Shown here piece by piece: positions 5,303-17,359 of a stretch of DNA of 64,000 nucleotides. The translations under genes were made by a program, and so were the position numbers. The stretch is from Armatimonadota bacterium. GTDB taxonomy: Bacteria; Armatimonadota; HRBIN16. A model generated the notes under the pieces. It had not been told where the DNA came from. It saw only the letters and a list, made by a program, of their open reading frames with translations, and ran no database searches. The stretch covers positions 96,001 to 160,000 of the forward strand of contig OY781964.1 of the NCBI GenBank assembly GCA_963677485.1, written 5' to 3'. Each line of letters begins with the position of its first letter. Within the stretch, counting starts at the first letter, position 1.

Positions 5303-5471
5303 GATACCAGATTATGTGGGATTCGCATCATGCATTTGGAGTTTTTGTGGTGATCGCATCCGACCCGTCCTACTCGTCGGACTCGTCATACAGGTCATAT
5401 GGGGTTGACCTTTTTCATAGGTGGGTATCAACCATACACTGGGGCGGCCAGGCGGCCGCCCCACGCAACCT

Positions 5472-11970: not shown

Positions 11971-13392
11971 GTGAATCGACGCCGGTTTATCAACGGATCC
12001 GCAATGACGATGGCCGCGCTCTCTGCTGTACCGGCAGCCATGTCTGCGGCAGATCAAAGTCAGGATCAAAAGACCAGCACTTCAATCGATCATACCAATA
12101 AGGTGAAACACGACATGCAAGACCCAATATCGCCAGAACAGCAAAGATACCGTACGATGCTCACCAAGTATGCCACCGCGAACTGCACCAAGATGCTTCG
12201 TGAGCCGATTGGCGTGCTGAAGCATCCGTTCATAGTGCCAGGCAGCGTCTACCAAGATAACCTGTGGGACTGGGACTCCTGGCTAGCCGATGTGGCCATC
12301 AGCCAGCTGGTGGTCGATTCGCCGAAACTTGATAAGGACCTGCTGAGTAAATACGAAAAAGGCAGTATCCTGAACTTCCTGGAGGCCACCGACGACGACG
12401 GCTGGATGCCCATCTGCATCAGTGTCGGCGGATTTGGCGAGATATTTGAGAAGAAAGGTGACGGCTCCCTGGCGAATATGCACAAGCCTGTCATCGCCCA
12501 GCACGCCGCGTTCATCGTCAAAGCACACAACAACGATGCGGAGTGGCTGCGACCTCTGGTCGGCAAACTTGAGGCATTTCTTGGCGCATACGAGCGAAAC
12601 TTTAAACATGCAAAAACTGGACTGTACTACTGGAAGAACGACCTGGCCATCGGCGTGGACAACGACCCAAGCGTCTACTTCCGCCCGCCGAACAGTTGCG
12701 GTTCGATCTACCTGAACTGCCTGATGGTCAAAGAGATGCTGGCGATGGGTTACATTGCTGAAGTTCTAGGAACCGGTACTGCCACCACCTGGCGCCGTAA
12801 AGCCGATGCATTGAAAGCATCAATCAATGAGCACTGCTGGGATGAGCGGGACGGCAGCTACTACAGCGTAGACCTAAACCTGCTGCCCAACGAAAACATC
12901 AAGGGCCTGCATGAAAATCTGCCCCGCGACTGGGACTGCCTGATCATGCGCATCGATGCATGGAGCAACTTCATGGCGTTATGGGCCGGAGTGGCCAGCA
13001 CGGAGCATGCGGCACGTGTGGTGCTTCACGCCCGAAACACCCACACATTCAACGCACCATACGGCATACGGACACTCAGCAAGATGGAAAAGATGTATAA
13101 CCTAAAGGCAAGTGGCAACCCAAGTAACTGGCTGGGGCCGATCTGGGGCATCGCCAACTACATGACCTTCCGCGGTCTGGCTGATTACGGCTACACGGAA
13201 GACGCTGCTGAGATCGCACAGAAGACCATCAACCTGTTTGGCCGCGATTACGAGCAGTTCGGCTCGCTGCATGAGTATTACAACCCCGACACCGGCGAAG
13301 CCATCCTCAACGCCAACTTCCAGAACTGGAACCTGTTGGTGTTGAACATGATCGCCTGGCTGGAAGGCCGACGCATCGTTCGCGAGTTCTAG
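11971..13392 (+). CDS. Tat-exported (alpha/alpha)6 glycoside hydrolase, GH63/GH37-like
   Basis: GTG start after AAAGGGGG; NRRRF twin-arginine; LWDWDSW, GVDNDP, NWLGPIW, LHEYYNPDTGE. Confidence 0.82.
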   Translation: MNRRRFINGSAMTMAALSAVPAAMSAADQSQDQKTSTSIDHTNKVKHDMQDPISPEQQRYRTMLTKYATANCTKMLREPIGVLKHPFIVPGSVYQDNLWDWDSWLADVAISQLVVDSPKLDKDLLSKYEKGSILNFLEATDDDGWMPICISVGGFGEIFEKKGDGSLANMHKPVIAQHAAFIVKAHNNDAEWLRPLVGKLEAFLGAYERNFKHAKTGLYYWKNDLAIGVDNDPSVYFRPPNSCGSIYLNCLMVKEMLAMGYIAEVLGTGTATTWRRKADALKASINEHCWDERDGSYYSVDLNLLPNENIKGLHENLPRDWDCLIMRIDAWSNFMALWAGVASTEHAARVVLHARNTHTFNAPYGIRTLSKMEKMYNLKASGNPSNWLGPIWGIANYMTFRGLADYGYTEDAAEIAQKTINLFGRDYEQFGSLHEYYNPDTGEAILNANFQNWNLLVLNMIAWLEGRRIVREF

Positions 13393-13418: not shown

Positions 13419-14160
13419 ATAGGGGTAGGGAGAACTTTCGTTCCCCCTCCCTCCGAACCGTGCGTGCGGTTCTCCCGCACACGGCTCTCCAGTTGGTAGT
13501 GTTACCTCATTTGAGGATTGGTGATTCTTTGCACAGGATGTTTGTAGTGTAAACACCTATACTCAGCATTGAAGGCGACAGCCTTCTTTGCCCCCATATG
13601 ATGGGGCACCAACATCCGATTTGTCCAGTCCACCGATGGCTGAGCAGTCGCCTGCTAGTTGTTTCCGCTTGTTTAGCCTTTTTTTAGGCACTTCTCGCGC
13701 GGAGCTATATTCGGTGGCTGAGACTTCACGGATCTACCTTCCTGCGCTCCCTTGGCTCCACATCCATTACAGACGCTTCAACGCTACTATGGGCGCTCTG
13801 ACTTCTGCCTGCAACGAACTTACTATCGCCACTACTGCAGGCAGATCTCCCTGCTTCACTTACGCGACCTCTTGTGACCATTCCATCCCCAAGCACCTCG
13901 CAACCCCCATCACTGCTCTATACGCTCACTCTCAAGCATAACAGGCACTGTTTTCACAGCACAAACTTCACCATTCCTACGCTGGCTCGTTGGTTCTACG
14001 CGGCCGAAACGGGTTCGTTATCCTACGGACTGGTCACTCGCCAACAGTTGCTCTCCACCCCACCTCGCGGTGACGCAGTTACTGCCGACTACAAGGCCAG
14101 AGTTGGCGTGGCCTCGAAGAGGAATTGCACCTCTTTGTTCGCGTACGCTTGCAGGCGCAC
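13419..14160 (-). mobile_element. ORF-less group II intron (internally deleted derivative)
   Basis: 5' GTGCG at 14160; domain V GAGCCGTGTGCGGGAGAACCGCACGCACGGTTCGG; ends CCCCTAT at 13419; ribozyme 5' part near-identical to neighbour; only short degenerate RT ends remain. Confidence 0.9.
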
Positions 14161-16008
14161 ATAGGGGTAGGGAGAGCTTTCGCTCCCCCTCCCTCCGAAC
14201 CGTGCGTGCGGTTCTCCCGCACACGGCTCTCCAGTTGGTAGTATTACCTTTCTAAGGATTGGCGATACTTCTCACAAGCTGTATGTAGTGAAAACAGCCC
14301 GTGATGCTCAAAGAAGGCGTTCGGCCATATGTTGTGGTCAATTCCACGACCTACACCGCGGCGTCCGTCACGACCACGTAATATACTACGTAACCGCATA
14401 CGTATCCATCCATCCAAGTCCCTAAATATACGACCATCGCAGTATTTGAAGTATCCAAACCAGCCTCTGGTGCTCATGTTTAAGTCATGGATGATGGCCT
14501 GCAGGCTGCGGCCATTTGCGCGTGGGGTCTTTTCGCGGATCGTATCCTTTAGCTTCTTGAGGCTCTTGTCACGAACATTCAGGTATTTACCTTTTTCGAA
14601 ACGAAAGCCCAAGAACTCAAAGGGCTCGATCAGAGCGTCTACGATCCGAGTCTTTACCGGGTGAAGGGTAAGACCAGCTCTTGTCGTCCAGTCTCCCAAC
14701 TTCTGCAAGGCTGCCTCAGCATCTTCCTGGCTTTTGCACAATATCACCAGATCATCGGCGTACCGAACCATCTCTATACCCAGCTCTTCCATCATATGGT
14801 CAAGTGGGTCTAGATAGATATTCGCCAGCAGTGGACTTATCACTGCCCCCTGCGGCGTCCCTTCATCAGGACGCCATTCTGCCACGGTGTCGATAACCCC
14901 CTGGCCTAAGTATGACTTCAGTAAAGACAACACCTTACCATCAGACACCTTGCTCTCCACGAGTGAGAGCAGAGCTGCATGGGGTATCGTGTCAAAGTAG
15001 CTCCTAATGTCAGCATCTACAACGTAGGTGTAACCCTGTTCTAGTAGTGCTGACACACGGCCGATGGCGTGATGGCAACCTAACCCCGGACGGAAACCAT
15101 AACTCCTGTCGGAGAAGTCCCGCTCGAAGATCGGCTCAAGCACGTTCCTCAGTGCCGTTTGAACTACCCTGTCTCTGACTGTAGGTATCCCAAGTGGTCG
15201 CTTTTCTTTGCTTCCGGGCTTGGGTATCCATACTCGCAGTATCGATTGGGGGTAATAGATACCCTCAATCAGCCATGTATGTATCTCTTGAAGATTGGCC
15301 TCAAGATGTTTCCCGAAATGAGCCACACTCTGGTGGTCTACACCGGCACTACCCTTATTTGCTTTCACTCGCGTGAAGGCATCCATCAGGTTTTGCATGG
15401 AGCAGACCTTGTCCATCAGGCTATACCATTTACCTCCATTGACCCCCTCGTCGAGGGCAGCCAACATTCGCCTCGTCCAGACAGCCGGTAGCATAACAGG
15501 GTCAGTGCTTGCTGCTCCCGCGTGGTTAGTCCCTCTAGACACTAGCGCGGGTAACTGTTCCTTTATCTTCACTTGGCGAATCTACCTTCCTGCGCTCCCT
15601 TGGCTCCACATCCATTACAGACGCTTCAACGCTACTATGGGCGCTCTGACTTCTGCCTGCAACGAACTTATTATCGCCACTACTGCAGGCAGATCTCCCT
15701 GCTTCACTTACGCGACCTCTTGTGACCATTCCATCCCCAAGCACCTCGCAACCCCCATCACTGCTCTATACGCTCACTCTCAAGCATGACAGGCACTGTT
15801 TTCACAGCACAAACTTCGCCATTCCTACGCAGGCTCGTTGGTTCTACGCGGCCGAAACGGGTTTGTTATTCTACGGACTGGTCACTCGCCAACAGTTGCT
15901 CTCCACCCCACCTCGCGGTGACGCAGTTACTGCCGACTACAAGGCCAGAGTTGGCGTGGCCTCGAAGAGGAATTGCACCTCTTTGTTCGCGTACGCTTGC
16001 AGGCGCAC
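14161..16008 (-). mobile_element. Full-length group II intron
   Basis: 5' GTGCG at 16008, RT ORF in domain IV, domain V/VI and terminal CCCCTAT at 14161. Confidence 0.95.
14244..15572 (-). CDS. ltrA: Group II intron reverse transcriptase/maturase, no endonuclease domain
   Basis: RPLGIPTVRDR, SYGFRP, DADIRSYFD, GTPQGAVISPLLANIYL, RYADD, maturase X domain (GWFGYF); 442 aa. Confidence 0.95.
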   Translation of the reverse strand: MKIKEQLPALVSRGTNHAGAASTDPVMLPAVWTRRMLAALDEGVNGGKWYSLMDKVCSMQNLMDAFTRVKANKGSAGVDHQSVAHFGKHLEANLQEIHTWLIEGIYYPQSILRVWIPKPGSKEKRPLGIPTVRDRVVQTALRNVLEPIFERDFSDRSYGFRPGLGCHHAIGRVSALLEQGYTYVVDADIRSYFDTIPHAALLSLVESKVSDGKVLSLLKSYLGQGVIDTVAEWRPDEGTPQGAVISPLLANIYLDPLDHMMEELGIEMVRYADDLVILCKSQEDAEAALQKLGDWTTRAGLTLHPVKTRIVDALIEPFEFLGFRFEKGKYLNVRDKSLKKLKDTIREKTPRANGRSLQAIIHDLNMSTRGWFGYFKYCDGRIFRDLDGWIRMRLRSILRGRDGRRGVGRGIDHNIWPNAFFEHHGLFSLHTACEKYRQSLER

Positions 16009-16123
16009 GTAGGGGTGCCCCTTGTGGGCACCCTAATCGTTGCCGGTCATCGATATTGTGTCGGCTATATCGCCCATTCAACGGTTGACATTGTGCTAGG
16101 GTGCCTACAAGAGACGCCCTTAC
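16009..16123. repeat. Inverted REP doublet (REPIN-like), 5' exon of the intron
   Basis: GTAGGGGTGCCCCTTGTGGGCACCCT (16009-16034) and degenerate inverted copy AGGGTGCCTACAAGAGACGCCCTTAC (16098-16123). Confidence 0.78.
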
Positions 16124-16156: not shown

Positions 16157-17359
16157 TCACTTCCCCGGCTTCTTCGCTTCCTTCGCCATCACGCCTTTCA
16201 GGGACAGCTCACGTATGGCGATATCACCTCGGAAAGGCGATTTCAGCTCCCAACCGATGTTGAAGTGTGAGATCTTGAAGCCAGACAGATCAGGCTTCAC
16301 GTCAAGAAAGGCCTGTTTCTGCGTTTGCATCGCCAGGAGGGCCTTGCGAGCGACCTCCAAAACATCAATGCTGATCTCAGTTTCTTTCCCAGCCGCAAAG
16401 GCATCCAGCCTGGCTAGATAGTCTTTACCCAGCACCGTCAGGTAACTCAGCCCATAGGCAAAGGACTCACCATCGGACATCACCAAATCCGTACTGTAAT
16501 TGACGGGTAAAGGGTAGGGCAAAAAGTCATCATAAACCTGGCACCCGAGCCAGAAGGTCTTGCCAAAGTTGCTGGGCAGAGCCGTATCTCCTTTGCGGCA
16601 ATCAACCACCTTGAACCAAAGGAAAAAGCCATTCCGGTTGTAAAGCCCCCTCCAGTTCGCAATCTGATCGCCCTTGTATTGGCTGCTCAGGTTCTCAGCA
16701 CAAATCAACCTGAGTTTGACCTTAAGCTTAAGTGACTGGAGGGTATTGAGAGCAGGGAAGGTGCTGGCATACTCCTCGGCAACACCAATCCGCACCTTGC
16801 GGTCGCGGTAAGGGAAGAAGTCGTGATATAGAAGATAGTGCGGTCGTAATGACTCCATGCGTTCATAGGAGATAGGCTCATGGTTGAACATAGCAAGTGA
16901 GTCGATACCCATCTGCAGCTCTGGCTGTCCTTTACTGTCGACAATCACACGCATAGATTCGTATTCGCTTTGCCATAAGGCTTCACGTTTAGTCGATATC
17001 TTACGGTCACTCTCCGAAAGGCTTTTTACACAATACCACTGGGCCACCGACCCGAAAGGCTGCTGGCCAGTGGCCTTTATCGGTTTTAACTGGTTGAAAT
17101 CTGTGAAGGGCATCTCTCGGGCTATCATGGGTGGAGAAACCATAAATCCGCGCAGGAATGCATCAGCTGGGAAGAATTCAACCGCCGTTTCGGCTTTGGC
17201 GGCCGCAGCCAGCTTCGCACGGCCTTTGTCTGGTTGGCTTTGATTGGCCTGCTGGTTCTGCTTAGGCGTGGTGGGTATATCGGCAACAGCACTTGCTACA
17301 TGGCTGAGCCCTAACGCCAAAATCGTCCATGCATACAACTCGTATTTCCCTAAGCGCAC
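16157..17359 (-). CDS. Hypothetical exported protein
   Basis: 400-aa ORF, GTG start with AGGAG RBS, signal-peptide-like N-terminus; family not recognised. Confidence 0.75.
   Translation of the reverse strand: MRLGKYELYAWTILALGLSHVASAVADIPTTPKQNQQANQSQPDKGRAKLAAAAKAETAVEFFPADAFLRGFMVSPPMIAREMPFTDFNQLKPIKATGQQPFGSVAQWYCVKSLSESDRKISTKREALWQSEYESMRVIVDSKGQPELQMGIDSLAMFNHEPISYERMESLRPHYLLYHDFFPYRDRKVRIGVAEEYASTFPALNTLQSLKLKVKLRLICAENLSSQYKGDQIANWRGLYNRNGFFLWFKVVDCRKGDTALPSNFGKTFWLGCQVYDDFLPYPLPVNYSTDLVMSDGESFAYGLSYLTVLGKDYLARLDAFAAGKETEISIDVLEVARKALLAMQTQKQAFLDVKPDLSGFKISHFNIGWELKSPFRGDIAIRELSLKGVMAKEAKKPGK

Follow-up and report, generated by a model that had tools for sequence, protein, structure and literature searches.

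Group II introns of class C (IIC) are described in PMC1702495, in the portion of that source drawn on here, by four traits: a stem-loop upstream of the insertion site (terminators or "other inverted repeats"), a pairing of 3–4 bp between exon-binding site 1 (EBS1) and intron-binding site 1 (IBS1), an EBS3, and a reverse transcriptase (RT) without an endonuclease domain. In Thermosynechococcus elongatus, introns without an open reading frame (ORF) are mobilised by the intron-encoded proteins of related introns, as demonstrated in trans according to the consulted part of PMC2882425. Tandem integration was shown experimentally in 2025 for the IIB1 intron EcKTE56.groEL: the excerpted account in PMC12584367 has the second copy inserting upstream and using the first copy's G as IBS3 through a U-G wobble at EBS3, with an ORF-deleted form stacking more often than the full-length one. 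Here, we describe a pair of group II introns in the genome of an Armatimonadota bacterium, found in a 64,000-nucleotide stretch (the window, G000:C1:96001-160000) of a single 5.22-Mb contig.

On the minus strand of the window, a long, RT-encoding intron (L1) is followed directly by a short, ORF-less intron (S1). The presence, in the assembled sequence, of a tandem of two well-formed group II introns at this locus is confirmed, far beyond chance. Most likely, with a probability of about 0.6, the pair arose by two separate retrohoming events at one hairpin, with S1 as the resident and L1 as the later arrival, which entered between the 5′ exon and the first G of S1.

The intron pair and its counterparts in metagenomes

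The features of the locus are listed below in window positions. A slash in a sequence marks a boundary.

16009..16033, minus strand: 5′ exon target, a hairpin resembling repetitive extragenic palindromes (REP-like), GGGTGCCC-ACAA(G)-GGGCACCC, its 3′ side running into IBS1 CCTAC (16013-16009); read from the sequence
14161..16008, minus strand: L1, long autonomous class-C-type group II intron, 1848 nt; from boundaries, Rfam and alignment
15824..15828, minus strand: EBS1 of L1, GUAGG, intron positions 181-185, terminal loop; from covariation with the 5′ exon in 14/15 introns
15741..15741, minus strand: EBS3 of L1, C268, unpaired, within an internal loop (3′ strand of domain I); from covariation
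14244..15572, minus strand: RT/maturase ORF with RVT_1 and GIIM, YADD present, without endonuclease domain; from ORF and Pfam
14161..14231, minus strand: domains V and VI of L1, ending CCCCTAT; RF00029, 58.1 bits
13419..14160, minus strand: S1, short ORF-less group II intron, 742 nt, abutting the last base of L1; from boundaries, Rfam and alignment
13976..13980, minus strand: EBS1 of S1, GUAGG, whose local 5′ "exon" is the L1 end CCUAU (four Watson-Crick pairs and one G·U); from alignment
13893..13893, minus strand: EBS3 of S1, C268, the same as in L1; from alignment
13493..13731, minus strand: domain IV of S1, consisting of a diverged domain IVa/ORF N-terminal remnant, about 47 unmatched nt and an ORF C-terminal remnant; from local alignment
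13419..13489, minus strand: domains V and VI of S1; RF00029, 58.7 bits
13418..13418, minus strand: IBS3, G, the first base of the 3′ exon; from comparison of copies

The boundaries were read base by base on the minus strand. The hairpin reads GGGTGCCC-ACAA-GGGGCACCC, followed by CTAC ending at 16009, and L1 begins at CCCCTAC/GTGCGCC (16009/16008). L1 ends and S1 begins at CCCCTAT/GTGCGCC (14161/14160) with zero bases separating them, and S1 ends at CCCCTAT/G (13419/13418). Both introns open with GTGCG and share the terminal sequence ...CCCTACCCCTAT, at 14161 and 13419, respectively; the junction between them is present once in the genome. An earlier, sequence-only reading of the window had claimed a zero-spacer CCCCTAT/GTGCG junction, which is what the bases show, and about 1.1 kb missing from the short copy, which agrees with the difference of 1106 nt in length. 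A twintron was considered and rejected, since S1 is not nested but begins after the last base of L1, head to tail.

When the 64-kb window was searched with Rfam at the gathering threshold, exactly two matches were found, both to RF00029 (domain V/VI) and both covering model positions 1-77 of 77: one at 14161-14231 in L1 (58.1 bits, E = 8.2e-09) and one at 13419-13489 in S1 (58.7 bits, E = 5.7e-09), against a cut-off of 40. None of the Rfam D1-D4 models reached its cut-off (best RF01998, 18.4 bits vs 35).

The ORF of L1 encodes 442 aa from a GTG codon, but by homology an ATG at 15494 (416 aa) is probably the likelier start. Pfam recognized RVT_1 (E = 1.6e-40) and GIIM (E = 2.3e-14) in the protein, and no endonuclease domain was found in that search. 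Its four best solved relatives are all RTs of IIC introns (6ar1, 8.7e-72; 7uim, 7.4e-61; 5hhl; 5hhj), with the solved IIB and IIA proteins well behind at about 1e-39. By these nearest solved RTs, the lack of an endonuclease, the hairpin target and the EBS1 and EBS3 described below, both introns are predicted to be class-C-type (IIC).

The exact junction CCCTACCCCTAT/GTGCGCCTG was also found in 31 metagenome contigs. Two of these (L110 and L116) carry full-length pairs whose two copies are 82–83% identical, from which we conclude that heterologous intron tandems are real in nature. In five further contigs the copies on either side are 96–99.2% identical, so that, with L110 and L116, at least 7 of the 31 hold non-identical copies. 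Several short contigs are 100% identical on both sides and could be either true tandems or circularised assemblies; these were not counted as independent proof. Nine complete ORF-less members of 723–833 nt occur among the junction contigs. In 9/9 cases the intron at the head of an array matches the 5′ exon of that array, and in L122 the second intron matches it as well. Among the genome-derived relatives, 36 introns have a complete 3′ end, and none of these is followed by another intron.

A self-comparison of the 80 loci collected from genomes yielded one head-to-tail case, in a contig of a Holophagales metagenome-assembled genome (L078, 2863-5666), which belongs to a different intron class (RT 41% identical, Rfam D1D4-4). 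That intron ends at 5413, and the adjoining 253 nt share 81% identity with the 5′ region of the same intron, apparently a head-to-tail arrangement beyond the IIC clade.

Target recognition and the order of insertion

To place the exon-binding sites, the introns were compared with relatives from a scan of species-representative genomes, which gave 80 loci of ≤62% identity from many phyla. The nearer-clade introns begin with GTGCGCCTG and terminate in CCCCTAT, an ending kept across the clade irrespective of EBS1. A consensus fold of domain I from nine sequences has 66 predicted pairs, 29 of them with compensatory changes. The loop at positions 181-185 complements the 5-6 nt directly upstream in 14 of 15 introns (the miss is L056), with many different sequences; because the loop covaries with the 5′ exon in this way, these positions are fixed as EBS1, which here is GUAGG and pairs with CCUAC. 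Position 268 is G in 14/14 genome relatives, with C (11), T (2) or A (1) as the +1 base; here it is C with a +1 G. In the terminal introns of the metagenome tandems, the 268/+1 combinations are G-C (3), C-G (1), U-A (2), A-U (2) and G-A (1). Since 8 of these 9 are Watson-Crick, the covariation fixes C268 as EBS3, pairing with the +1 G. Of the 36 genome-derived introns whose 3′ end is complete, 29 have C as the following base, 4 have T, 3 have A and not one has G; in the present genome G follows all five intron 3′ ends, in the case of L1 as the opening base of S1.

A hairpin precedes the intron in 7/7 genome relatives inspected, followed by 4-5 nt, and in 9/9 informative metagenome arrays. In the present genome, a hairpin with CCTAC lies upstream of all four occupied loci, and in every one of these cases (4 loci, 7 relatives, 9 arrays) the hairpin takes the position of IBS2. 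The hairpins belong to a REP-like family with the pattern GGGnnnnn-loop-nnnnnCCC then CTAC, many copies of which read GGGCGCCCACAAGGGACGCCCCTAC/GAC. A scripted census counted 6336 CCTAC in the genome, 585 of them preceded by a hairpin and 285 of those 585 then followed by G; a strict-pattern search of the repeat gave 180 + 169 matches genome-wide. Matches of 35 nt to the hairpin were also found in the same-genus genome G001. The hairpins have no T run, and a terminator scan flagged none of them as a terminator. REP elements with a REP-associated tyrosine transposase (RAYT) are recognized by an abundant hairpin with a GTAG/CTAC end and by a Y1 transposase gene flanked by such repeats. The genome has three PF01797 (Y1_Tnp) genes, none with such a hairpin within about 600–700 nt.

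These observations suggest how two introns could come to share one site. The target would be read as a DNA stem-loop, IBS1 CCTAC (by EBS1 GUAGG) and a +1 G (by EBS3 C268). An insertion would keep the hairpin and IBS1 intact and supply its own first base, G, at +1, so the occupied site would still be a full target for an intron with EBS3 C, and a newcomer would land upstream of the resident. L1 would have entered between the intact 5′ exon and the resident S1, with the first G of S1 acting as IBS3. We infer the order of insertion from this logic: upstream insertion is favoured because the occupied site retains the hairpin, IBS1 and G. It is also the mechanism demonstrated for the IIB1 intron. 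The metagenome tandems speak for this direction too: in 15 of 19 readable cases EBS1 of the downstream intron is unable to pair with CCUAU, the leading intron fits the 5′ exon of its array in 9/9, and EBS3 is U or C in 6/8 upstream introns. The pair follows one hairpin with CCTAC like that of every other copy, in keeping with the earlier proposal of stacking at one site. Target saturation is not the cause of stacking, because hundreds of look-alike targets are free.

The opposite order gives the same sequence, because EBS1 GUAGG also pairs with the L1 end CCUAU, by four Watson-Crick pairs and one G·U. In that case L1 would have been the resident and S1 would have inserted behind it, with the domain VI stem-loop of L1 and CCUAU mimicking the target and the native G acting as IBS3. 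The 3′ strand of the domain VI stem-loop runs into CCCCTAT in much the same way that the repeat hairpin runs into CCCCTAC, and the +1 G is native. The EBS1 of the downstream intron is readable in 19 of the 31 junction contigs; it is GTAGG in two of them (L114 and L130) and contains GTAG in two more, but in 15 of the 19 it cannot pair with CCUAU, so this was not the general route. It also requires a splice-site wobble and a bulged, non-canonical hairpin, whereas upstream insertion uses a perfect native target, and the CCCCTAT end is conserved clade-wide whatever the EBS1, so it is no adaptation for mimicry. We consider the opposite order unlikely, although it has to be taken seriously.

Insertion of L1 upstream of a resident S1, although preferred, has several points weighing against it, the identical outcome of the reverse order among them. 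With about 285 sites that combine hairpin, CCTAC and G, a double hit among five random insertions would be expected in about 3–4% of cases, and the model does not explain why it occurred. Since G at +1 is common in the repeat itself (285/585), its presence at 4/4 independent sites is weak evidence by itself. The change of EBS3 from G to C happened just once among the genomes compared, and 2/8 upstream introns of the metagenome tandems have G at EBS3 and stack nevertheless. The same-genus genome G001 gives no information on the order because, between the same flanking genes, a 715-aa ORF replaces any empty or singly occupied site (L021, G001:C1:5186900-5190700). Finally, the tandem rests on the genome assembly, because none of the contigs listed from four public runs bridges 14160/14161 by at least 31 nt; these contigs break at repeats.

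This last point, and the fact that the first 429 intron nt are present five times in the genome, might indicate an assembly artefact in which two intron types were misjoined during repeat resolution. Against this, the genome is one 5.22-Mb contig, and assemblers usually collapse repeats rather than make exact base-to-base junctions at splice sites. The 5′ exon and the intron end share about 6 nt, which is too short for misjoining, and S1 has its own variants relative to S2, a second short copy described below. Given that the junction recurs in 31 metagenome contigs, at least 7 of which hold non-identical copies, an artefact is very improbable. The summed word depth relative to the flanks in runs X1 and X2 was about 3x for S-specific words, about 1.4–1.8x for L-specific words and about 4–5x for the shared 5′ part; this roughly fits three short and two long copies, with the caveat that depth is not equal to copy number.

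The pair sits between convergent genes, a glycoside-hydrolase-like gene on the plus strand that ends at 13392 and a 400-aa ORF on the minus strand that ends at 16157. Among 40 relatives searched, none carries these introns; only 46-nt domain V matches were found, in G018.

The short intron and its relation to the long one

The sequence-only reading had called S1 an ORF-less derivative of its neighbor. The first half of this description holds, since the intron strand of S1 has no ORF longer than 56 aa within its bounds. The second half needs amending. In the first 429 nt, L1 and S1 differ at 6 positions (98.6% identity), and identity collapses from position 430 in the pairwise alignment. The last 75 nt (domain V/VI) have 2 differences, which together replace a G-C pair of domain VI by A-U, a compensatory change. 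The ORF C-terminal remnant in S1 is clear, with about 78% identity to L1 and a score of 60 that was reached by 0/300 shuffles, whereas the domain IVa/ORF N-terminal remnant is collinear but borderline (about 63%, score 28, reached by 2/300 shuffles). A similar stem architecture is predicted for domain IVa of both introns, with energies not better than those of shuffles (z = -0.24 and -0.64). Because the domain IV remnants are thus only about 63–78% identical, compared to 97–98% for the ribozyme parts, S1 is not a simple derivative of L1; it is an ORF-deleted relative of L1 rather than a recent deletion from it. The contrast also points to a mosaic history, possibly through recombination, gene conversion or template switching. 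No close match to the domain IV of S1, which might have identified a parent, was found in the 80 genome loci or the 31 metagenome loci.

The genome contains two long copies, three short copies and one diverged third intron. The second long copy, at G000:C1:1447090-1448937, differs from L1 at 1 position and encodes an identical protein. The short copy S2 (C1:2854438-2855179) has 2 differences from S1, and S3 (C1:826775-824378) is longer by 1 base and is split by an insertion of 1652 bp. The short copy is therefore not unique. The three short copies occupy three different targets of the form hairpin + CCTAC/G. Since they sit at three proper sites, the short element is a mobile lineage that moved recently, and its lack of an ORF supports the earlier view of it as non-autonomous.

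Close relatives of both elements occur in other samples, as shown by contigs that are about 95–97% alike. Runs X6-X20, from peat, bioreactor, groundwater and ice samples, contain 13–34% of the window's words. A 1331-nt contig from run X6 is about 97% like the L1 ORF, and contigs from run X13, an RNA library, are about 95–97% like both the L1 ORF and the domain IV of S1. One contig from an RNA library of another sample spans an S-type domain IV, from which it departs at 7 positions and by 3 gaps across 258 nt; this shows that the ORF-less architecture occurs in another sample and is not proof of transcription.

The 97–98% identity of the ribozyme parts and the retention in S1 of remnants of both ORF ends could also be explained by an origin in place, by tandem duplication or unequal recombination of L1 followed by deletion of the ORF from the downstream copy. 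However, the ORF remnants are about 63–78% identical to the neighbor, vs 98.6% for positions 1-429. Two more short copies with the same domain IV lie at other targets, the S-type domain IV is found in the contig from another sample, and the junction is exact to the base, as it would be from retrohoming. An origin in place can practically be discounted.

The short lineage keeps EBS1, EBS3 and domain V identical to those of L1, with domain VI maintained by the compensatory change. The sole intact RT of matching type in the genome is that of the long intron, whose two copies encode the same protein. The S1 lineage very probably depends on this RT/maturase, which would be supplied in trans; the supplier need not be the neighboring L1, because the second long copy encodes the identical protein. 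By the pairing rules, removal of L1 would leave CCUAC/GUGCG for S1, and removal of S1 would use CCUAU (with one G·U) and leave L1 beside the native G. Either intron could presumably splice first. The earlier claim that splicing of either intron leaves the other a usable 5′ exon is sound as pairing logic, with CCUAC or CCUAU as the predicted IBS1 and the C/G pair at EBS3.

Within domain IV of S1, at 13524-13627 on the minus strand, two sigma-70-like hexamer pairs point in the intron direction. The signal is weak, the whole 3.1-kb region having 5 such pairs vs 1.8 ± 1.5 in shuffles. The pairs recall the outward promoters reported in IIC-attC introns (PMC3001079).

The third, diverged group II intron, at G000:C1:2649881-2652859, scores 45.9 bits with RF00029. 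Its RT is 34–44% identical to that of L1, is the sole other RT of this kind in the genome, and is split by a 1653-bp repeat. This repeat of 1652/1653 bp has 22 copies of 99.2–100% identity, one of which is the insertion in S3 (G000:C1:824519-826170, locus L136), with TAG duplicated. No Pfam or NCBIfam family matches its single ORF of 511 aa at E ≤ 0.01, and the look-alikes of this ORF in the ESM-Atlas are unnamed "hypothetical protein" clusters; the repeat resembles an insertion element whose transposase is unclassified. At G000:C1:2694012-2694045, a hairpin with CCCTAC is followed by GTGCGCC, about 13 nt further on by an 11-nt match to intron positions ~147-157, and by an inverted hairpin. 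The arrangement may represent a 28-nt remnant of an intron since lost, or a coincidence.

Significance and comparison with known systems

The locus is a natural example, at the sequence level, of a site-specific retroelement re-using an occupied target, and it shows that a gene-less derivative can persist beside its driver. Because the same junction recurs in 31 environmental contigs, our results suggest that tandem arrays are common among hairpin-targeting introns and have been missed, perhaps as short-read assemblies break there. Intron pairs of this sort may also mislead annotation and assembly. With EBS1 and EBS3 mapped, the proposed mechanism can be tested: an altered C268 should alter the stacking preference. 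For study, S1 itself offers a compact IIC ribozyme (ORF-less, about 740 nt) together with a presumed partner protein.

A more far-reaching interpretation, which we put forward tentatively and think doubtful as a whole, joins these observations into an IIC lineage that has turned self-stacking, with a parasite co-transcribed with its driver, homogenised ribozymes and widespread arrays. If self-stacking is true, an EBS3 C would let each insertion regenerate the hairpin, CCUAC and its own G, and arrays could grow. Lying right after an autonomous copy, an ORF-less parasite would share its transcript and be the first to reach the newly made RT/maturase. Through proximity or template switching, the ribozymes would be kept homogenised (98.6% over positions 1-429) while the domain IV remnants stand 22–37% apart, which would amount to concerted evolution of retroelement and non-autonomous partner. 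On this view, the junctions in the 31 metagenome contigs would represent a widespread, undescribed array-forming habit of the clade.

The individual properties of the pair have precedents. In our literature search, which did not cover most subscription journals, we came across no account of IIC introns paired head to tail in nature. The introns resemble B.h.I1 of Bacillus halodurans, a IIC intron, as characterized in the part of PMC1702495 consulted: insertion right after a stem-loop, a short EBS1–IBS1 pairing with one EBS3–IBS3 pair, a small ribozyme (about 425 nt up to domain IV), an RT without endonuclease and an intergenic site. They depart from the IIC class as quoted there in that EBS1–IBS1 is 5 bp here (5-6 in the clade) rather than 3–4 bp. 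Unlike in terminator-targeting IIC introns, the hairpins are REP-like and without a T run, which the "other inverted repeats" of that source would allow.

S1 is like the T. elongatus introns, as far as the sections of PMC2882425 at hand describe them, in that the ORF is deleted, remnants of both its ends are kept in domain IV, and the protein of a related intron is needed, in our case presumably so. Those introns are IIB, comprise 17 ORF-less copies and form nested twintrons rather than head-to-tail pairs. With EcKTE56.groEL, as presented in the available portion of PMC12584367, the pair shares an unchanged 5′ exon and a junction of intron end and GTGCG. EcKTE56.groEL is a IIB1 intron with EBS2, sits in the groEL stop codon and was seen to stack mostly in an over-expression assay, whereas here we have a natural pair of two element types, with EBS3 C (Watson-Crick with G) and a repeated hairpin as target. 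The locus is therefore not a new kind of system; it unites three known things, namely IIC targeting, ORF-less hitch-hikers and tandem integration. Because tandem integration has been shown experimentally for another intron class, the pair is best viewed as a natural variant of known biology.

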